Shown here in pieces: positions 1 through 46,569 of a stretch of DNA of 46,880 nucleotides. The position numbers and the translations under genes are program-made. Within the stretch, counting starts at the first letter, position 1, and every line of letters begins with the position of its first letter. Origin of the DNA: Escherichia phage BEK2; the sequence record MN158206.1. One strand, 5' to 3'. A model generated the notes under the pieces. That model was given only the letters and a program-made list of their open reading frames with translations. It was not told the origin of the DNA and did not search any database.

Positions 1-507
1 ATGAGCAAAGCAGCATTAAAGATGGGCGAAGGAAATTTCAAGGCGCTCTACAACAAGAAGTATGGCGATATTGCTATGGTGGCAATCAACCGCAAGTACA
101 CGCCTGAGGAAGTTTTCGATTTTGCGGTGAGATACTTCTCTTGGGCTGAAAGTGAGGTAATCAAAGCTATTGAGACGGCGGCTTTCCATGGCGTGGTTAG
201 TGAAAGCCTTGTACACAAACCGCGAGTGTTTACATTAACCGGGCTGGCGCTCTTTATGGGTGTTAACATCAATAGATTCGCTCGATGGCGCACTGAGGCT
301 GGATACTCTGATGTGATGGAATTTATTGATAACGTAATCTACGAGCAGAAGTACCAGCTTGGAGTTGCGGGTATCATCAACTCTACCATCGTTGGTAAAG
401 AGCTTGGTATTGATAAACCGCAGGAGATTAAGATTAGCAACAACTCCACAGCTAATGACGTTGATAGTATGAAGGAAGCACTGGAGTCCGTGATTAGTAA
501 GCTATAG
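1..507 (+). CDS. terminase small subunit (begins at window edge; 5' end unverified)
   Basis: 168-aa ORF immediately upstream of the large terminase and HNH gene; synteny-based call; stop TAG lies inside a degenerate TAGCAC box at 505-519. Confidence 0.5.
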   Translation: MSKAALKMGEGNFKALYNKKYGDIAMVAINRKYTPEEVFDFAVRYFSWAESEVIKAIETAAFHGVVSESLVHKPRVFTLTGLALFMGVNINRFARWRTEAGYSDVMEFIDNVIYEQKYQLGVAGIINSTIVGKELGIDKPQEIKISNNSTANDVDSMKEALESVISKL

Positions 508-547
508 CACTTATTGTTAAAAGAAGAGGCCCAATCAATGAGATAAT
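505..547 (+). promoter_or_regulatory. composite early-type promoter (degenerate box TAGCAC-TTATT-GTTA + -10 GATAAT at +37)
   Basis: box 505-519, -10 542-547, same 37-bp phasing as the other copies; precedes HNH gene. Confidence 0.45.
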
Positions 548-575
548 GGGCCCAACAAACTAGCGAGGTGGCGAT

Positions 576-1088
576 ATGAATTGGCATGATTATTTTGAAT
601 ACAAAGATGGGAAGATTTACTGGAAAGATTACGATAGCGAGAGGCTTGGAAGGAGAAGGATACAGCGAAGATTCATAGGGAAAGAGGTTGGCGGCATTGA
701 TAAAAGCCTAGGGTATGTTAGGGTAAACATGCCTGGTAAAAAATATTGGGTTCATAGAATAATCTGGGAGATGCATAACGGAGTAATACCAGAAGGTATG
801 CAAATTGACCGTATAAATCATGTTAGAAATGTTAATAGGATAGAAAACCTTAGGTTAGTTACAATTCAGGAAAATAGAAAGAATCAGTCAATAAATTCGA
901 GGAATAAGACCGGGGTTACCGGAGTCTGCATAGTATCTAGGACTGGCAAATATGCAGCTCAAATAAAAAAGGATGGAGAGAATATTCACTTGGGATTCTT
1001 TGATAATATTCACGACGCGTCGATTGTCAGGGCGAGGGCTGAATTTATTCTTGGGTATCATAAAAACCACGGGAGGAAAGATGAGTGA
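576..1088 (+). CDS. HNH homing endonuclease with AP2-like DNA-binding domain
   Basis: HNH motif 'YWVHRIIWEMHNG...IDRINHVRNVNRIENLRLVTIQEN' followed by AP2-like 'TGVTGVCIVSRTGKYAAQIKKDG'; 3' end overlaps terL start by 8 nt. Confidence 0.8.
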   Translation: MNWHDYFEYKDGKIYWKDYDSERLGRRRIQRRFIGKEVGGIDKSLGYVRVNMPGKKYWVHRIIWEMHNGVIPEGMQIDRINHVRNVNRIENLRLVTIQENRKNQSINSRNKTGVTGVCIVSRTGKYAAQIKKDGENIHLGFFDNIHDASIVRARAEFILGYHKNHGRKDE

Positions 1089-2652
1089 TTTAATCGTATG
1101 GGATGAGCTGACATACGCAGAAAAGATGGCTATCAAGGCCATCTCTGAGCATAGTTTCGAGGGGTTCTTGCGGTGTTTCTTCCAGATAACTCAGGGCGAG
1201 AGATTCAAAATGAATTGGCATGCGAAGTACCTATGCCGTGTTATAGATGAGATTCTCGAGGGAAAGAGAAAGGATACCATCATAAACGTAGCTCCCGGAT
1301 CAGCCAAAACCGAACTTTTTAGCATTCACTTCCCTGTGTATAGCATGATTAAGATTAAGAAGGTCAGGAATCTTAGTTTGTCGTTCTCTGATTCATTGGT
1401 TAAGCGCAACTCCAAACGCGTCCGTGACCTTATTAAGTCAAAGGAATTTCAGGAGCTCTGGCCTTGCACCTTTGGAACGTGCAGGGATGACGAGATTCAG
1501 GTTCTGGATGAGAATGGCAAAGTTAGGTTTGAGTCTATATCCAAGGCGATGGCAGGACAGGTGACGGGAAGCAGGGGAGGCTACATGACTGACGATTATA
1601 GTGGTTGCATAATGCTTGATGACCCACTAAAGCCTGATGACGCGTTAAGTAATGTAAGAAGAGAGGCTGTCAACATGCTTCTCAAGAACACAATTCGTTC
1701 ACGTCGAGCTAGCTCAGTAAAGGGAAAGGAAACGCCAATACTTTCCGTGCAGCAAAGACTTCATGTTCTGGACACTAGCCACTTCATGGAGTCAGGGCAA
1801 ATGGGCATAAAGTTCGACGTAGTGAAAGTTCCAGCCATAGTCACAGAGGATTACGCCGACACGCTTCCTGATTGGATCAAGCAACAATTTATTGATGATG
1901 TTCTTTCATCACCATTTGTAGAGCGGGATGGGGTTAAGTATTACAGCTACTTTCCGGCAAAGGAGTCAATAGAAGACCTGATGGCCATGTGGGATGCTGA
2001 CCAGTACACGTTCCTTAGTCAGTATCAACAAGAACCAGTAGCACTTGGCGGCAATCTGATTAACGTGGATTGGTTCCAGCGCCTTAGCGATACATTCAGA
2101 CCTCCCGCTAAGTATGATTATCGATTCATCACATGCGATACTGCGATGACTACAAAGAGTTATAGTGACTTCTCTGTACTTCAGTTGTGGGGCTATAAGG
2201 ACGCCAAGATTTACCTGATAGACCAGCGCAGAGGTAAGTGGGAGGCGCCAGAGTTGGAAGCTGAACTGCTGGACTTCGAGAAGAAATCAAGGGCAACCAG
2301 TCAGGCAGATGGCATCCTCCGAAAGATTATCATCGAGAAGAAAGCCTCTGGTATCGGTCTTATTCAATCGGCAGGTAGAGTTATGCGAACACCGATAGAG
2401 CCATACGTGCCGGATAACGACAAGCTAACTAGGGTAATGAGCGCATTGCCACAGATTAAAGCTGGTAACGTAGTTCTTCCCGAGTCAGCGTCGTGGTTAA
2501 ACGGATTGCTTACTGAGGTTGCGGCTTTTACGGCAGATGATTCGCATAAGCACGATGACCAAATTGATACCATGACAATGGCAATCAACCTGGTTCTGAA
2601 CATTGCGGACGATCCTAAGGCGCGACTAATGCGCATAGCGGGAATTAAATAG
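1081..2652 (+). CDS. terminase large subunit
   Basis: ATG 1081 with GGGAGG RBS (track ORF 973 starts inside HNH gene); size and position between terS/HNH and portal; stop TAG embedded in TAGCAC box. Confidence 0.85.
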   Translation: MSDLIVWDELTYAEKMAIKAISEHSFEGFLRCFFQITQGERFKMNWHAKYLCRVIDEILEGKRKDTIINVAPGSAKTELFSIHFPVYSMIKIKKVRNLSLSFSDSLVKRNSKRVRDLIKSKEFQELWPCTFGTCRDDEIQVLDENGKVRFESISKAMAGQVTGSRGGYMTDDYSGCIMLDDPLKPDDALSNVRREAVNMLLKNTIRSRRASSVKGKETPILSVQQRLHVLDTSHFMESGQMGIKFDVVKVPAIVTEDYADTLPDWIKQQFIDDVLSSPFVERDGVKYYSYFPAKESIEDLMAMWDADQYTFLSQYQQEPVALGGNLINVDWFQRLSDTFRPPAKYDYRFITCDTAMTTKSYSDFSVLQLWGYKDAKIYLIDQRRGKWEAPELEAELLDFEKKSRATSQADGILRKIIIEKKASGIGLIQSAGRVMRTPIEPYVPDNDKLTRVMSALPQIKAGNVVLPESASWLNGLLTEVAAFTADDSHKHDDQIDTMTMAINLVLNIADDPKARLMRIAGIK

Positions 2653-2692
2653 CACGAATTGCTAAACATAAAAGCCAGGGATGGCTTATAGT
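2650..2692 (+). promoter_or_regulatory. composite early-type promoter (TAGCACGAATTGCTA + -10 TATAGT)
   Basis: box 2650-2664, -10 2687-2692 (37-bp phasing), spacer contains inverted repeat agcca/tggct. Confidence 0.6.
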
Positions 2693-2727
2693 TACTTCAC
2701 ACAAACGAGATGAGAGGAGATAAACAA

Positions 2728-3111
2728 ATGGGACGCACTTCAAAGGTTGTATATCTTGGAAGCAACACTGGAGAGTGTGGTGGTTTTACAGTAGGAAAGG
2801 AATATAAGGCTTACAATTATAATACTGAATATAATTACATTTCAACTTATGATGATAAAGGTAGCTATCGTCAAATCAAGAACGGAGCATTCCACCACTT
2901 CAAACTCCATGATGAGGATGACCATTTTGTAACTGAGACTGAGTGCGCAGTCATGCAGCCCAGCGAAGATAAAAAACCATCTCTAATATATTGCATAAAC
3001 GGTCATGAAGTTGACATGATTGAGTTTGAAAATGTGCGCCATAAGGTTCTAGAGCTTGATGCTTATGGCGTAAAATGCGACACAATCAAGTTCGAAGTAA
3101 AATTCGAGTAA
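2728..3111 (+). CDS. hypothetical protein (autonomous cargo gene between terL and portal)
   Basis: ATG 2728 with GAGGAG RBS; own promoter upstream and own terminator downstream; no recognisable domain. Confidence 0.6.
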   Translation: MGRTSKVVYLGSNTGECGGFTVGKEYKAYNYNTEYNYISTYDDKGSYRQIKNGAFHHFKLHDEDDHFVTETECAVMQPSEDKKPSLIYCINGHEVDMIEFENVRHKVLELDAYGVKCDTIKFEVKFE

Positions 3112-3132
3112 TCAAAAACTGTGTGATAAACT

Positions 3133-3158
3133 AGCCCCTAAATGGGGCTTTTTTTATT
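3133..3158 (+). terminator. intrinsic terminator
   Basis: hairpin agcccc-taaat-ggggct followed by T7 run. Confidence 0.7.
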
Positions 3159-3168
3159 GGAGAAAAAC

Positions 3169-4437
3169 ATGGTTAAGACAGACAGCTACGCCAATATATT
3201 TCTCGGCGGCAGTGATGGTAGTGAGATTTACGGGAGCTTACAGAATCAGGAACCTACAATTCTGGGTTCGCTTTATGCAAATAATGCCATAGTGCGTAGA
3301 ATTATCGACACAATCCCTGAGACAGCATTAGCGGCAGGATTCCACATTGATGGCATTGATGATGAGCCTGCCTTCTGGTCACGCTGGGATGATCTAGAAA
3401 TGACGCAGAATATTAACGATGCTTGGTCTTGGGCTAGATTATTCGGTGGAGCCGCTATTGTCGCTATCGTTAAGGACAATAGGGCGCTAACAAGTCCTGT
3501 CAGAGAAGGTGCCGAACTTGAAACTGTTAGAGTTTACGACCGCACACAAGTAAAAGTACAAACTCGCGAGGAGAATCCCCGTAACGCACGTTTTGGTAAG
3601 CCACTAACCTATCGCATTACCACAAATGAGAGCGATATGTTCTATGATGTGCATTACAGCAGAATTCACATCATTGACGGAGAGCGAATTCCTAACGTAA
3701 TGCGTCGGCAAAATGACGGCTGGGGCCGCAGCGTTCTATCCAGTGACATTCTTGACTCAATCAAGGATTACACCAACTGCGAACGACTGGCTACGCAACT
3801 ACTGAGAAGAAAGCAGCAAGCAGTGTGGAAAGCCAAAGGTCTGGCTGAGTTGTGTGATGATAGCGAGGGATTTGGTGCCGCAAGGTTGCGCCTAGCACAG
3901 GTTGATAATAATAGCGGAGTTGGTCAGGCGATTGGGATTGATGCAGAATCTGAAGAGTATAGCGTTCTAAACTCTGACATTGGCGGGATTGATGCGTTTC
4001 TGGATAAGAAGTTTGACAGAATCGTTGCTCTGAGCGGTATTCATGAAATTATCCTCAAGAACAAAAACGTTGGCGGCGTGTCATCAAGTCAAAACACTGC
4101 ACTTGAGACATTCCACAAGCTAATTGACCGCAAGCGTAACTCTGAGCTGCTTCCTGTTCTTGAGTTCTTAATTCCGTTCATCGTTAACGTTGACGAATGG
4201 TCGGTTGAGTTTAACCCCTTAGCTCAGGAATCAAGCAAGGACAAAGCGGAGATTCTGGAGAGGAACGTAAACAGCATCGCGACGCTAATTGCATCTGGCG
4301 CTATGGATATTGATGAGGCGAGAGATACATTGCGTACAATCGCTCCAGAGGTTAAGATTAGTGACGGTTCAGTAGAGACAGAGGTGACAATTAGTGAAAC
4401 CAGTAACGACCCGCTGGAAGTATCCGCAGACAATTGA
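3169..4437 (+). CDS. portal protein
   Basis: ATG 3169 after terminator (track start 3142 lies in the hairpin); ~420 aa, follows terL, precedes Mu-F-like head protein. Confidence 0.8.
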   Translation: MVKTDSYANIFLGGSDGSEIYGSLQNQEPTILGSLYANNAIVRRIIDTIPETALAAGFHIDGIDDEPAFWSRWDDLEMTQNINDAWSWARLFGGAAIVAIVKDNRALTSPVREGAELETVRVYDRTQVKVQTREENPRNARFGKPLTYRITTNESDMFYDVHYSRIHIIDGERIPNVMRRQNDGWGRSVLSSDILDSIKDYTNCERLATQLLRRKQQAVWKAKGLAELCDDSEGFGAARLRLAQVDNNSGVGQAIGIDAESEEYSVLNSDIGGIDAFLDKKFDRIVALSGIHEIILKNKNVGGVSSSQNTALETFHKLIDRKRNSELLPVLEFLIPFIVNVDEWSVEFNPLAQESSKDKAEILERNVNSIATLIASGAMDIDEARDTLRTIAPEVKISDGSVETEVTISETSNDPLEVSADN

Positions 4438-9811: not shown

Positions 9812-10468
9812 ATGGCTCATTTATCAAACGGCACTCAGGTGTTCGTAGAGGGTTCTCGTGGCGAAGCTGTTGCGGTTACAGCAATCTCTAACGCAGCAAG
9901 CCCTGTTTTAACCGTAGCTGACAGCTCTGGTATTGAGGTTGGTAATCACCTCCTGTTTACCGCGTCTTCCTCTACACTGCTTGCTGACAAGCACGTTCGA
10001 GTTACCGCAGTTACTGGTACATCAATCACAGTTGAAGGTATCGATACTTCTAACACCACAAAATTCCCGGCGGGGTTGACTGGTGAGGTGGTTAAGATTA
10101 TTTCCTGGTTCGAGGTTCCGTGCGTTCAGGACGTTTCCACTGACGGCGGCGAGCAGCAATTCGTTAACTTCCAATGCTTGTCCGATGACCGTGAGCAGCA
10201 GATTCCGACTTATAAATCTGCCGTAACTAACACCTTTACCTTTGCTCATGAGTACACCAACCCGGTTTATCCGGTTCTGCGTAACTACGATGAGTCAGGA
10301 CAGGTTGTCGCAATTCATCTGTATGTTCCACGTGCACAGGAGATGCGTTTGCAGTCCGGCACTATCGCTTTCAACGACACGCCAACCATCGGTGTTAACG
10401 AAATCGAAACGGTGTCCATCTCGGTATCAATTCGTGGTCGACTGTCCTCTGTGGCAGCACCAGTTTAA
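9812..10468 (+). CDS. major tail protein
   Basis: 218 aa, strong RBS, followed by terminator, upstream of chaperone/tape-measure genes. Confidence 0.6.
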   Translation: MAHLSNGTQVFVEGSRGEAVAVTAISNAASPVLTVADSSGIEVGNHLLFTASSSTLLADKHVRVTAVTGTSITVEGIDTSNTTKFPAGLTGEVVKIISWFEVPCVQDVSTDGGEQQFVNFQCLSDDREQQIPTYKSAVTNTFTFAHEYTNPVYPVLRNYDESGQVVAIHLYVPRAQEMRLQSGTIAFNDTPTIGVNEIETVSISVSIRGRLSSVAAPV

Positions 10469-10475
10469 AGCACAA

Positions 10476-10497
10476 ACCCTCTTCGGAGGGTTTTTTA
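10476..10497 (+). terminator. intrinsic terminator
   Basis: ccctc-ttcg-gaggg + T6. Confidence 0.7.
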
Positions 10498-10502
10498 TTG
10501 CA

Positions 10503-10545
10503 TAGCACTTTTTGCTAAAGCACTTATCCAATCTTCCTGTATAGT
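10503..10545 (+). promoter_or_regulatory. composite early-type promoter (TAGCACTTTTTGCTA + -10 TATAGT)
   Basis: box 10503-10517, -10 10540-10545, leader 'ctcATCGAAACGAAA'. Confidence 0.6.
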
Positions 10546-10578
10546 TAACTCATCGAAACGAAATGAAGGAATTAAGAA

Positions 10579-10827
10579 ATGAATAACGTTAAAAACATTA
10601 TCAAACTTACTGCGGTTCTGGTTGCTTTTTATGCGGTGGTTCAGATTGTTAACCCAACGGGTGAGGCTGATGCAAATAGCAAGGCAAACAAATATACCGT
10701 TGAGTTTGCCAAAGCCGAGCGAGCATGCCAGGAACTTGTAGGTGGTAAGGTTGATCAAATCATGAAGTATGGTAGTGAGATTTGCAAGGATACCGCCGCT
10801 AAGATTGCAAAAGAAAACACTAAGTAA
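10579..10827 (+). CDS. small secreted/membrane-anchored protein (cargo gene inside tail operon)
   Basis: N-terminal hydrophobic segment 'LTAVLVAFYAVVQIV' then soluble domain with 2 Cys; own promoter. Confidence 0.6.
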   Translation: MNNVKNIIKLTAVLVAFYAVVQIVNPTGEADANSKANKYTVEFAKAERACQELVGGKVDQIMKYGSEICKDTAAKIAKENTK

Positions 10828-29140: not shown

Positions 29141-29155
29141 TAGCACGAATTGCTA
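29141..29155 (+). promoter_or_regulatory. orphan TAGCACGAATTGCTA box (no phased -10 for adjacent gene)
   Basis: perfect box between primase terminator and tail-fiber start codon, antisense to both. Confidence 0.4.
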
Positions 29156-29180
29156 AGTTGGATTGTAGCATCTTTCGGGT

Positions 29181-29202
29181 ATAAAAAACCTCCCGAAGGA
29201 GG
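29181..29202 (-). terminator. intrinsic terminator after primase gene
   Basis: minus sense cctcc-ttcg-ggagg + T6. Confidence 0.65.
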
Positions 29203-30126
29203 TTAGCTATTCAATAAGTCACTTGCCTTATATATCTTCTTCCTGATGCCGCTCTTGAATGAGTATTCATCATTTGGTATTACCACGTCAATACACCTGT
29301 CATCCGCAACGCAAAGCAACTCTCTGTCAAGTTTGCACGCCACTCTCAGCTTTTGGTTTCTAAGCGCGTAAGCAACCATTTCCATGTTGTAACTGGAGTA
29401 GCAAACAAGCACACAGCGGTTGCCAGTAGCAATGTGAACACGATAGCCGTCAATGAGATTATCGACCAGATAAGCGAACTCACCATCCTTAAGGGAACCA
29501 ATAACAGCCACAGACTGGCGAGTGTAATCTTTTGCGGCATAACTAACATCTCCTTCTTCATTGATAAACATTACATTGCACATTTCTTCTGATATACCAT
29601 CACCATAAGCCATGAAGCAAGGTATTGCATGGATTAATTCACCTGATTTTGCTCTACCAACATCAAAGCCAAACTCGCTATAGATTCCCTCGTATATACT
29701 GAGTGGGGTTGATTCTACTCTTTCCGTCCTTCCCATTATCTCTAAGCATCTTTCGTGGTCAATTTGAGCGCCCATTTTGTAGAGCTGGGTTCTTGATGCT
29801 TGCTTGTTTGCCTTGTTGACAACCTCAACCGGGATAAGGTTTAGCCACTCACCGAGAACGTCGATACACTCACTGAATGACTCGCCTCGCAGCTTCTGGA
29901 CCCAGAGAATTCCATCCCCTGAGCCGCACTGGTTGCAGATAATGCCACCATCACCATCTTCGCTAACCTTGTTTGTCCATCTCGCGCGATCGTTTCCACC
30001 GCAATAGATGCATGGCTTGTGCTTCTTGGTCTGGAAAAACTTAGGATCTGCGCCGCAGATGTTTATAAGCGCCTTATCCCACAGTCCGCGCATTCTTGGT
30101 AGAACCTCTTTCTTATCGTAGTGCAT
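29203..30126 (-). CDS. DNA primase (zinc-ribbon + catalytic domain)
   Basis: 'PCIYCGGNDRARW...GGIICNQCGSGDGI' matches primase Zn-ribbon pattern. Confidence 0.65.
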   Translation of the reverse strand: MHYDKKEVLPRMRGLWDKALINICGADPKFFQTKKHKPCIYCGGNDRARWTNKVSEDGDGGIICNQCGSGDGILWVQKLRGESFSECIDVLGEWLNLIPVEVVNKANKQASRTQLYKMGAQIDHERCLEIMGRTERVESTPLSIYEGIYSEFGFDVGRAKSGELIHAIPCFMAYGDGISEEMCNVMFINEEGDVSYAAKDYTRQSVAVIGSLKDGEFAYLVDNLIDGYRVHIATGNRCVLVCYSSYNMEMVAYALRNQKLRVACKLDRELLCVADDRCIDVVIPNDEYSFKSGIRKKIYKASDLLNS

Positions 30127-30446: not shown

Positions 30447-30932
30447 TCATCCATGAGAAATGTCTTTAGCTTTTCGTGCTGCCTCGTTAGCGGCCTTAAT
30501 CTTGCGCCATGAGCGACACTCTGGCTTGGTGGCTAATTCTGCATCAGTGACCACGCGCAGCATGTGACGTTTTTTGCAGCGCAGGGTTAGAGGCTTGCCA
30601 TTGCCGTCGAATTGCAGATCTGGTCGGCAGAATGTGGCTCTAAAACCTTCCCCGGTTCGTTTGTAGTAGTTGTGCGATAACTGAGCACCACGTGCGGAAA
30701 TCATGCCGCGCTTAAACCATTCTTCTACAGCCTGTGGTGTTACCTTTAGCTGCTTTGCGATATTCGCTTTTGTGCCGAAGAAATCAAGAACTATATCTAG
30801 TCGCGCGCGTAGTCCGGCTCTTACTTCATCTTTTAAAACGTAGTAGCCTGAAGGTCGTTTGCGTTGTTTTTTGTCTTCAGTGCGGATAGTTCCGTTGTTC
30901 CCGTTGATTGTTCGCTTGTCGACTGTATTCAT
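30447..30932 (-). CDS. HTH DNA-binding protein (candidate transcriptional regulator)
   Basis: 'TKANIAKQLKVTPQAVEEWFKRGMIS' helix-turn-helix; first gene of leftward operon; GAGGT RBS. Confidence 0.55.
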   Translation of the reverse strand: MNTVDKRTINGNNGTIRTEDKKQRKRPSGYYVLKDEVRAGLRARLDIVLDFFGTKANIAKQLKVTPQAVEEWFKRGMISARGAQLSHNYYKRTGEGFRATFCRPDLQFDGNGKPLTLRCKKRHMLRVVTDAELATKPECRSWRKIKAANEAARKAKDISHG

Positions 30933-30945
30933 TTCATTACCTCAG

Positions 30946-34650: not shown

Positions 34651-35781
34651 ATGGCAACTGCAAAGATTAGCAACGAACAACTACGCGAAGAACTGGCAAG
34701 TGGCATGACCAACAAGGCAATCGCAGAGAAGTACGGAATGAACATTCGCAATGTTGAATTGCGTCGTAGTAAATTGGCTAAGAGCGGGGAATTGCACGGG
34801 AACCCAGGCATCAAGAAACTAGTTCCTGACGGTTATATGGTTAAAGGCACATCAACAATGATTGACGCGGAAGGTAACGAGAAGATCAGATGGGTTAAAA
34901 CTTCAATAGATAATGAGCGACTTGAGGTTTTAATGGAGCAAGCGCGTGAGGCTTTTTGCTCTGATTTGCCAAAGGCAGATTCGGTCACCCACTCAGGTAA
35001 TGAGGTAAATTCTGAATTAATGACTCTTTACCCGATTTTTGATATCCATATCGGCATGATGGCTCATCGACATGAGTCTGGTGAAAATTATGACACCAAT
35101 ACCGCAGAGAAATTAATGGAATCATATTTCGATCATGCAATTTCTGTATCACCATCATCAGAGAAGGCTGTGATTTTGGTTGGCGGTGATTTCCTTCACT
35201 CTGACGGACTGGAGGCTGTAACTCCAGCAAGTGGGCACTGCCTTGATCAAGATAGTCGATATGCCAAGTTAGTTTATGTGGCAATTCGCTCAATTCGCGG
35301 TGCGGTAGAGAAGATGCTTAAGAAACACAAGGAAGTCGAGATTCAAATCATAGAGGGAAATCATGACCAAAGTGGTATGATTTGGCTTCGTGCGGCAATG
35401 GCTGCATTTTATGAAAGCGAGAGTCGCGTGTTTGTTGATACCAGCCCGGCAATCATGCACAAAACACGATTTGGCTCAACACTACTTGGTTACACGCACG
35501 GTCACACGATGAAGAAAGCAGAAGGCAGGCTTGCAGCTATGGCAACTGATTACAGGAAAGATTTTGGTGAGTGTGAATTTGTTTATTGCCACTCCGGGCA
35601 TTTTCACCACGCAACTGTTACAGAGTGCACTCTTGGGATTGATGAGGTTCACCCAGCTCTGGCTAGCAAGGATGCATATGCCGCTCGAGGAGGGTGGCGA
35701 TCATATCGCCAAGCGGCTGCAATTGTTTACCACAAGAATTTTGGCGAGGTTGGTAGACACATTTATCGCCCAGGTATGTAA
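34651..35781 (+). CDS. calcineurin-like metallophosphoesterase with N-terminal HTH
   Basis: 'DIHIGMM', 'GGDFLHSDG', 'EGNHD', 'GHTH' phosphoesterase motifs; N-terminal 'MTNKAIAEKYGMNIRNVELRR'. Confidence 0.65.
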   Translation: MATAKISNEQLREELASGMTNKAIAEKYGMNIRNVELRRSKLAKSGELHGNPGIKKLVPDGYMVKGTSTMIDAEGNEKIRWVKTSIDNERLEVLMEQAREAFCSDLPKADSVTHSGNEVNSELMTLYPIFDIHIGMMAHRHESGENYDTNTAEKLMESYFDHAISVSPSSEKAVILVGGDFLHSDGLEAVTPASGHCLDQDSRYAKLVYVAIRSIRGAVEKMLKKHKEVEIQIIEGNHDQSGMIWLRAAMAAFYESESRVFVDTSPAIMHKTRFGSTLLGYTHGHTMKKAEGRLAAMATDYRKDFGECEFVYCHSGHFHHATVTECTLGIDEVHPALASKDAYAARGGWRSYRQAAAIVYHKNFGEVGRHIYRPGM

Positions 35782-35866: not shown

Positions 35867-36043
35867 ATGACTAAAATGATTTATTGCACCAAAAACAATT
35901 CCAAGACCCTGCCATTTACAGTTAACCAGCCGTACAACGCAGAGTACCAGGGCGATGGATATTACAAGATTTATGGAGACGATATGAAGCACATCTTAGC
36001 GCCGATTGATGGTTCGTTGGTTGAATTTATTATCGCTGACTAG
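35867..36043 (+). CDS. hypothetical small protein (58 aa)
   Basis: ATG 35867 after promoter; followed by terminator. Confidence 0.35.
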   Translation: MTKMIYCTKNNSKTLPFTVNQPYNAEYQGDGYYKIYGDDMKHILAPIDGSLVEFIIAD

Positions 36044-44150: not shown

Positions 44151-44193
44151 TAGCACTTTTTGCCTAACCCTCTTCGGAGGGTTTTGTTATAGT
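44151..44193 (+). promoter_or_regulatory. composite promoter variant with embedded terminator (TAGCACTTTTTGCCTA, hairpin, -10 TGtTATAGT)
   Basis: box 44151-44166, hairpin ccctc-ttcg-gaggg + T4 (44167-44186), -10 44188-44193, leader 'tcccATCGAAAGCAAAC'. Confidence 0.55.
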
Positions 44194-44231
44194 TATCCCA
44201 TCGAAAGCAAACAACCAAACGGAGCTACAAA

Positions 44232-44324
44232 ATGATTTCTTTACTGATGATTATCCCTGCTGTTATCGCCCTGGGTCTGATGGTTAGTGCTGGTGAGTTC
44301 TACGTCCCAGTCAACAAGAAATAG
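44232..44324 (+). CDS. hypothetical small hydrophobic peptide (30 aa)
   Basis: 'MISLLMIIPAVIALGLMVSAG...' single TM; own promoter; stop in next box. Confidence 0.3.
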   Translation: MISLLMIIPAVIALGLMVSAGEFYVPVNKK

Positions 44325-46492: not shown

Positions 46493-46569
46493 GCTCGAGT
46501 GGCGAAAGTGGATATCGCAAGAGACTTCTAATCTCTAGATTGCTGGTTCGAATCCAGCCTCGGGCGCCA
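46493..46569 (+). tRNA. tRNA-Arg (anticodon UCU)
   Basis: hand-folded cloverleaf: acceptor GCTCGAG/CTCGGGC (one G-U), D-stem GCGA/TCGC with GG in loop, anticodon stem AGAGA/TCTCT, loop CT-TCT-AA, T-arm GCTGG-TTCGAAT-CCAGC, discriminator G, encoded CCA. Confidence 0.8.

Follow-up and report, generated by a model that had tools for sequence, protein, structure and literature searches.

The morons of lambdoid phages, which Juhala et al. in 2000 and Cumby et al. in 2012 are said to have described, are reportedly promoter-gene-terminator units located between late genes, such as HK97 gp15 and lambda lom and bor. T4-type phages are said to contain mobile regulatory cassettes named PeSLs (promoter-early stem-loop), reportedly the subject of Arbiol et al. 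in 2010. The locus considered here is a small gene, the target gene, located between the terminase gene terL and the portal gene of Escherichia phage BEK2 (sequence record MN158206.1), of which a stretch of 46,880 nucleotides (nt), the window, was analyzed. It is proposed, with a probability of roughly 0.6, that the target gene forms a self-contained accessory, moron-like expression cassette, carried by a virulent T1-like phage in its late structural operon. Its product would probably play a role in host or phage conflict (counter-defence, takeover or exclusion) rather than in the virion.

The element found upstream of the target gene also has a precedent. The consensus of a 21-nt repeat, aaATAGCACnnnTTGnTAAAA, was published for phage TLS and noted also in T1, Rtp and Rogue1 (PMC11447400). 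The sequence at 2647-2667 of the window meets this consensus and is co-oriented with transcription, and the distance from TAGCAC to the start codon is 78 nt at the target gene versus about 76 nt reported for TLS (PMC11447400). Unlike the TLS description, the repeat at the target gene moves together with the gene and keeps a fixed spacing of +37 to a -10-like hexamer, and the TLS paper draws no tie between the repeat and mobile gene cassettes (PMC11447400).

BEK2 was placed in the Drexlerviridae, subfamily Braunvirinae, as an Rtp-like, strictly virulent, T1-like phage, and the window was 100% identical (megablast) to the record of phage BEK3, MN158207.1. The features of the locus, with lengths of proteins in amino acids (aa), are the following:

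1-507: terS
576-1088: gene of an HNH homing endonuclease
1081-2652: terL, with its stop codon TAG at 2650-2652
2647..2667, + strand: 21-nt Drexlerviridae direct repeat aaATAGCACgaaTTGcTAAAc, an upstream promoter-associated element, one of 17 copies in the window
2672..2687, + strand: spacer hairpin AAGCCAGGGATGGCTT, -8.4 kcal/mol, with the signature (G)CCAyGGATGGC common to all cassettes of the family
2687..2692, + strand: -10-like hexamer TATAGT, at exactly +37 from the T of TAGCAC
2693..2727, + strand: leader beginning with TACTTCACACAAACGAG and containing the ribosome-binding site (RBS) GAGAGGAG at 2712-2719, near-identical in 11 cassettes at three insertion sites
2728..3111, + strand: target coding sequence, 127 aa plus stop codon, isoelectric point (pI) 5.3, phrog_14592 family, homologue of rtp22
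3124..3156, + strand: intrinsic terminator made of an A-tract, a stem-loop (3133-3149) and a run of seven T (3150-3156)
3157..3171, + strand: ATTGGAGAAAAAC and then the portal ATG, a right-hand junction motif common to all cassettes
3169-4437: portal gene, with its ATG at 3169

The target open reading frame (ORF) is intact, with its RBS 8 nt 5′ of the ATG, and corresponds to QGH76777.1, a hypothetical protein, in the BEK3 GenBank record. The initial annotation of the sequence had located the gene correctly and had given it 128 aa, a figure that includes the stop codon. It had also reported no recognisable domain, which agrees with the lack of any Pfam domain above threshold (a weak DUF7244 signal stayed below it); a match to the phrog_14592 hidden Markov model does exist (E = 6e-34, residues 4-127 versus profile positions 1-116 of 116). 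A database of 5.8 billion proteins yielded 43 homologues with 39-100% identity. In a representative search of 1.84 billion proteins, just 38 clusters matched at E ≤ 0.001; their members of 105-140 aa look like true relatives, the others being fragments or long repetitive proteins. An IMG/VR scan for the family returned three loci and no more, and an Rfam scan of 2500-3300 gave nothing above noise. The G+C content of the target gene is 38.3% (35.9% at third codon positions) versus 46% in terL and portal, which places it within the lowest 4.6% of 384-nt windows.

The distribution of the gene among relatives was patchy. The order terL, terminator, portal, with no gene in between, was found in BEK6, Veterinaerplatzvirus 12210I, JeanPiccard (Bas02), Rogunavirus AKS96 and T1, and other members of those genera or collections (T145P1, AugustePiccard and JulesPiccard) carry a gene of the family. 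Among the BASEL phages, Bas01 and Bas03 have two copies each, and Bas02 has none at the terL-portal junction and gave no tblastn match. Since the gene is absent from the terL-portal junction of close relatives, it is accessory. The supposition of the initial annotation that the gene interrupts this junction was thus borne out, and the comparison with related phages that it had recommended revealed a gene that is variably present at this position and not conserved there in all of them. At the BEK6 junction, TAAATAGC is fused to CGTGATAAAC and followed by the hairpin, so that the left edge of the repeat is joined to the terminator; this retained TAAATAGC remnant suggests that the BEK6 lineage lost the cassette by deletion. 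No DNA match to the target gene was found in 5,426 complete Escherichia coli genomes, so an origin from the host or from a prophage is unsupported.

A survey of insertion sites, run by tblastn with three divergent alleles and by PHROG scans, recovered one family, phrog_14592, at three junctions:

Site A, between terL and portal: BEK2, Rtp, IME253, EC3a, SU57, ACG-M12, JK06, Sd1, Opt-719 and others
Site B, between two adjacent tail-module genes (annotated as minor tail protein, and as tail assembly or minor tail protein): BEK6 and AugustePiccard
Site C, between two preceding minor-tail genes: JulesPiccard

The cassette is built alike at the three sites: its left end consists of a stop codon, ATAGCACnnnTTGCTAAAC, 8-9 nt, (G)CCAyGGATGGC, GTATAGTTAC, the leader TTCACACAAACGAGAGG and ATG, and its right end of the gene stop, GTTAAACTrGG, a hairpin, TTTTTTATTGGAGAAAAC and the following gene's ATG. 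The site B junction of BEK2 is empty and has no terminator, so at site B the terminator and the RBS travel with the cassette, and at the tail-gene junctions in general the terminator belongs to the cassette. The situation at terL-portal is different, as the terminator is present also at this junction of the gene-less phages BEK6, AKS96 and T1 and therefore belongs to the backbone, not privately to the target gene. The initial annotation, which had credited the gene with a strong terminator of its own, was right about the terminator itself (the stem-loop AGCCCC-TAAAT-GGGGCT has -14.3 kcal/mol and z = -3.2) and not about its ownership at this site. Outside the Drexlerviridae, a homologue with a full-length phrog_14592 match (E = 2e-9) was found in the Vequintavirinae (rV5-like myovirus), in a run of small ORFs just 5′ of a DNA ligase gene, a non-structural context.

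The cassette junctions also harbour HNH genes: in AugustePiccard (locus L004, 2153-2764), RobRod40 (L009, 1453-2065) and JulesPiccard (L024, 2691-3241). Two copies of a AAATAGCAC repeat flank the AugustePiccard insert, the left one being present in RobRod40 too, and in JulesPiccard the TAGCAC repeat lies 5′ of the HNH gene. Because these inserts share the cassette junctions and adjoin repeats, the comparison suggests hot spots of integration or recombination that both kinds of insert share and that the repeats mark. In the window itself, the sequence at 505-1088 (+) encodes an HNH homing endonuclease (Pfam HNH_3, E = 2e-17) between terS and terL, overlapping the start of terL; a variant TAGCAC repeat lies 5′ of this gene, and in BEK6 and AugustePiccard a tiny ORF alone occupies that place.

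The TAGCAC box and the -10 sequence that the initial annotation had placed upstream of the gene are present at 2650-2655 and 2687-2692, the box overlapping the terL stop codon TAG. The bare hexamer TAGCAC is not enriched in the window (28 observed versus 22 expected). The informative unit is the longer motif TAGCACnnnTTG[CT], of which the window has 17 copies. In 13 of them a TAnnnT hexamer occurs at exactly +37, against a background of 1.6%, and in 14 a start codon with an RBS before it begins an ORF of 25 aa or more at +71 to +84, the repeat always being co-oriented with that gene; at the target gene the ATG is at +78 from TAGCAC. The same search gave no RBS-preceded ORF for the other three copies (29141, 33442 and 23295). 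The copies at 10503, 39972, 37542 and 44151 sit directly after terminators. The GGATGGC spacer hairpin is kept 5′ of the cassettes at sites A, B and C, and also in another promoter of the window, 41343(-).

T1 has 19 copies of the repeat, with none in sense orientation inside the structural block and sense copies only outside it. The 20-kb structural block of the window has only three: a variant copy precedes the HNH gene, and the other two precede the target gene and the small ORF at 10579; the repeat occurs also 5′ of lysis-module and recombination genes. So, judged from its placement and spacing, the TAGCAC repeat is a genuine motif, specific to the family, that is associated with promoters and typically belongs to non-structural genes. 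The moron-like insertion proposed in the initial annotation gains support from the patchy occurrence of the gene among near-identical relatives, its low G+C content, an element of promoter type seldom seen elsewhere in the structural block, and the presence of the whole unit, from promoter to terminator, at different junctions in other phages. A sigma-54 promoter (TGGCAC-N5-TTGCW), which has GG at -24 and GC at -12 with 10 nt between them, was considered and rejected, as the target has TAGCAC-N3-TTGC, with AG for GG and a spacing 2 nt too short.

Other copies of the repeat have features of their own. At 29141-29204 (+), a perfect TAGCAC repeat TAGCACGAATTGCTAAG with no ORF 3′ of it leads straight into a hairpin AACCTCCCGAAGGAGGTT, between the start of a leftward tail-fibre gene and the end of a leftward primase gene; the arrangement recurs in T1 at 34903. 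This element could give a short or antisense RNA, or be a pure protein-binding site. A second promoter-gene unit in the late operon occupies 10474-10827 (+), with a terminator (10474-10493), the TAGCAC repeat at 10503 and an ORF of 82 aa (10579..10827, phrog_22925); it lies directly 3′ of 9812..10468, which is taken to be the major tail protein gene (hypothetical in the BEK3 record), and the corresponding T1 spacer is gene-less and has an antisense copy of the repeat. At 44151-44324 (+), an unannotated hydrophobic ORF of 30 aa, MISLLMIIPAVIALGLMVSAGEFYVPVNKK, starts 81 nt 3′ of the repeat at 44151 and may be a missed small membrane protein. The spacer of promoter 41343(-), CGCCACGGATGGCGTATAGTTACTTCA, is nearly identical to the spacers of target-family cassettes in other phages; the 79-aa gene 3′ of it has no evident likeness to the target protein (translations compared by eye), and the resemblance of the spacers hints at promoter exchange.

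Concerning the evolution of the gene, the rates of non-synonymous (dN) and synonymous (dS) substitution were compared with those of its neighbours. Among Braunvirinae, dN is 0.24-0.33 and dN/dS 0.44-0.58 for the target gene. For the 600-nt segments of terL and of portal next to it, where dS is similar, dN is 0.02-0.04 and dN/dS 0.03-0.05. The target protein thus diverges about 10-fold faster than its flanks (dN/dS about 0.5 versus 0.04). In every pairwise comparison dN/dS was below 1 (0.19-0.69). In a sliding analysis of six sequences, one 15-codon window exceeded 1, with a peak of 1.18 at residues 25-38 that carries no statistical test. More than 40 divergent alleles have an intact ORF, and this, together with net purifying selection, indicates that the gene is functional.

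Exchange was visible both of the whole cassette and of its parts. When JK06 (Rogunavirinae) and the metagenomic locus L011 were compared, dS was about 0.7 for the gene and saturated for the flanks, which implies horizontal transfer of the cassette, also from one subfamily to another. Mosaic alleles were found in L011 (Rtp-type N-domain and EC3a-type C-domain), IME253 (N half like that of Rtp, C half not) and P0043 (site-C-type N-domain and site-A tail). Sequence entropy was highest in the linker and the core of the N-domain (1.6-1.8 bits, within a range of 1.2-1.8 outside the tail) and fell to its minimum, 0.24 bits, over the final 15 residues. Overall, the target gene is evolving fast and modularly under net purifying selection.

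The AlphaFold2 model of the protein had a confidence score (pLDDT) of 73.6 as a whole, and of 94.9 for the C-domain modelled alone. It predicts the following parts:

Residues 3-61: SH3-like barrel of five strands
Residues 64-81: disordered acidic linker
Residues 86-126: beta-beta-alpha-beta domain, ending in the conserved tail GVKCDTIKFEVKFE

All members of the family are acidic (pI 4.5-5.3), and the core residues and the C-terminus are kept down to 30% identity, including in the unrelated myovirus subfamily. Profile searches gave only noise in PADLOC (E = 0.046), with no match to a known defence or anti-defence protein, and in the PDB (E = 0.048); Foldseek against BFVD returned nothing below E = 0.001 except the family itself. 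Gp57 of phage phiEB49 was considered as an independent small SH3 protein and discarded, being a truncated copy from the same locus. CapRelSJ46 is triggered by Gp54 of phage Bas11, a small SH3-like protein that is not essential (PDB 9AXB; PMC11578894). The likeness of Gp54 to the target is at the generic SH3 level, with no sequence match, and Gp54 is a single domain of 66 aa, whereas the target has two predicted domains. In the window, a 58-aa ORF of phrog_4788 at 35867-36043 (+), just 5′ of the holin gene, shows a weak hhalign match (probability 64%, E = 7e-5) to the target-family N-domain. For KanT1, a standalone SH3 protein is reported in the lysis module of Drexlerviridae (PMC13164509), and the 58-aa ORF might correspond to it by position.

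It seems reasonable to propose the following mode of action. The target gene would have its own repeat-associated promoter and follow the transcription schedule of non-structural genes. If a phage factor is required, a candidate is the homologue of the T1 ST23 "transcriptional regulator", which gene order would place at 30451..30936 (-) of the window. Late transcription by read-through from terL is also expected, because no terminator lies between terL and the target gene, the spacer hairpin having no U-tract. The product would be a cytosolic, acidic adaptor of two domains, in which the variable SH3-like N-domain may bind a variable target of the host or of a rival phage, and the conserved beta-beta-alpha-beta C-domain may provide oligomerisation or anchoring. 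Such an adaptor would thus serve counter-defence, host takeover or exclusion, and not virion building. A role in conflict is favoured because of the dispensability of the gene, its own promoter-type element, low G+C content, mobility, domain shuffling and fast evolution, and its non-structural context elsewhere. The cassette would have spread most likely by recombination, with the repeated promoter element serving on the left and the terminator and TTATTGGAGAAAAC RBS motif on the right. A more specific version, which is offered tentatively, takes the TAGCAC repeat and the terminator/TTATTGGAGAAAAC as the ends of a PeSL-like portable system that shuffles a hypervariable two-domain effector, phrog_14592, among at least three late-operon junctions; the SH3-like domain of this effector would be in an arms race with a rival phage or a defence of the host, and the effector might act as an anti-defence protein, an exclusion protein or a Gp54-like trigger.

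Part of the evidence weighs against the accessory cassette, and it is considered here together with the alternative explanations. The repeat could be a regulatory or stop element for upstream transcription, the target being an ordinary gene of the late operon that is expressed only with terL and portal. The authors who described the repeat in TLS proposed a stoperator, an enhancer site or an UP-like element and left its function open (PMC11447400). The terminator-less stretch from terL to the gene goes in the same direction, and so does the poor fit to a sigma-70 promoter: TTGCTA lies 22 nt 5′ of the -10 hexamer, which is not the spacing of a sigma-70 -35 box (16-18 nt), a weak TAAACA (4/6) lies at 18 nt, the generic scan scores 9/12, and generic promoter-like matches in the window number 19, with 18.6 expected. 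Moreover, the literature searched yielded no transcriptome of any T1-like phage, a point that touches both the activity and the timing of the promoter. The "early-type" timing of the initial annotation is therefore something that we infer, given the spacing of TTGCTA and the repeat copies before lysis and recombination genes. Against a mere regulatory element stand the rigid +37 spacing, the co-oriented, RBS-preceded starts, the conserved leader, and the four copies located directly after terminators, where a new transcription start is needed since the terminators immediately precede them. Taken together, these regularities make the ordinary late-operon gene unlikely. A decaying or selfish passenger of no benefit to the phage, kept only as the cassette spreads by recombining at its repeated motifs (promoter and terminator), much as homing-endonuclease genes do at these junctions, would account for the sporadic distribution, the HNH genes with duplicated repeats at the same junctions (AugustePiccard, RobRod40 and JulesPiccard), the raised dN/dS of about 0.5, and the phiEB49 copy, which appears frameshifted (two tblastn pieces; annotated gp57 of 68 aa). 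The dN/dS analysis rests on few sequences, and this also tempers the case for the cassette. A passenger fits badly with an ORF that stays intact in so many divergent alleles, with pairwise dN/dS values that are all below 1, with a confidently predicted fold (pLDDT 95, C-domain), with core residues and a C-terminus conserved to 30% identity, and with a protein devoid of nuclease or recombinase features to drive its own mobility; it was judged quite improbable.

The main rival of the accessory-cassette reading is that the product belongs to the virion as an optional part (for example an accessory of the portal, head or tail, or a decoration protein) or is packaged and injected; its C-terminal strand IKFEVKFE would dock it onto the particle, while the variable N-domain would face outward or act after ejection. 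RefSeq and PHROG label family members (rtp22, JK_35P, EC3a gp67 and Sd1 gp49) as "virion structural protein", and every copy located in Drexlerviridae lies inside a structural operon, between structural genes (terL/portal, minor tail), an arrangement that suits an optional virion component too; both facts count against the conflict role. The near invariance of the last 15 residues (0.24 bits versus 1.2-1.8) can be likened to a pattern of T4, in which hypervariable internal proteins carry a conserved capsid-targeting peptide. On the other hand, no experiment could be traced behind the label, for which the papers of Niu 2014 and Chibeu 2012 and those on BASEL contain no evidence, so that caution is warranted with this database description of phrog_14592. 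A virion analysis by mass spectrometry listed seven proteins, none of them from the terL-portal junction (PMC4070988), a proteome that may be uninformative, since the gene is missing from AKS96, the one member of its phage set that was analyzed. A virion part would be expected in relatives sharing the virion architecture, and phages with near-identical structural proteins lack the gene, while the Vequintavirinae homologue adjoins DNA ligase among small early-type ORFs. Likewise, terL and portal are highly conserved and the target protein changes about 10 times faster, and its promoter element otherwise goes with non-structural genes. A virion or injected protein was thus considered doubtful, and the accessory cassette was preferred.

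Away from the subjects above, the window contains a single tRNA-Arg gene at 46493-46569 (+), with anticodon TCT, as reported for related Rogunaviruses.

If the accessory-cassette reading is true, T1-like phages would simply plug accessory genes into their most conserved operon, and phrog_14592 would be a compact, naturally variable candidate for studies of counter-defence or exclusion. Such phages often turn up as contaminants in laboratories and in industry, and they are also candidates for therapy. For the 21-nt repeat of the Drexlerviridae, a concrete role would emerge, that of a predicted promoter element kept at a constant distance from a -10 box. Both this repeat and the phrog_14592 family had appeared in the literature or databases before, and morons and PeSL-type promoter cassettes are known kinds of system. 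The addition made here is incremental: no prior description was found of the multi-site cassette behaviour and domain shuffling of phrog_14592 in T1-like phages.

Compared with lambdoid morons, the target is likewise a single small gene that separates two genes found side by side in relatives, with a promoter-like element before it and an intrinsic terminator after it; it is also dispensable, has a deviant G+C content (38% versus 46%) and sits inside the head and tail operon. It differs in that its phage is strictly virulent, with no expression in a prophage state, in that its promoter is a repeat specific to the phage family and not a sigma-70 consensus, in that the terminator at the target site pre-exists in gene-less genomes, and in that paralogous cassettes of the family, with shuffled domains, are found at three junctions. 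With respect to the PeSLs of T4-type phages, the motif and the phage family are different, and recombination at the target cassettes is indicated by genome comparison (duplicated repeats around HNH inserts and identical ends at three sites). As in PeSLs, a repeated promoter and a stem-loop flank small variable ORFs, plausibly supplying homology for their shuffling, and homing endonuclease genes use the same sites as the cassettes.

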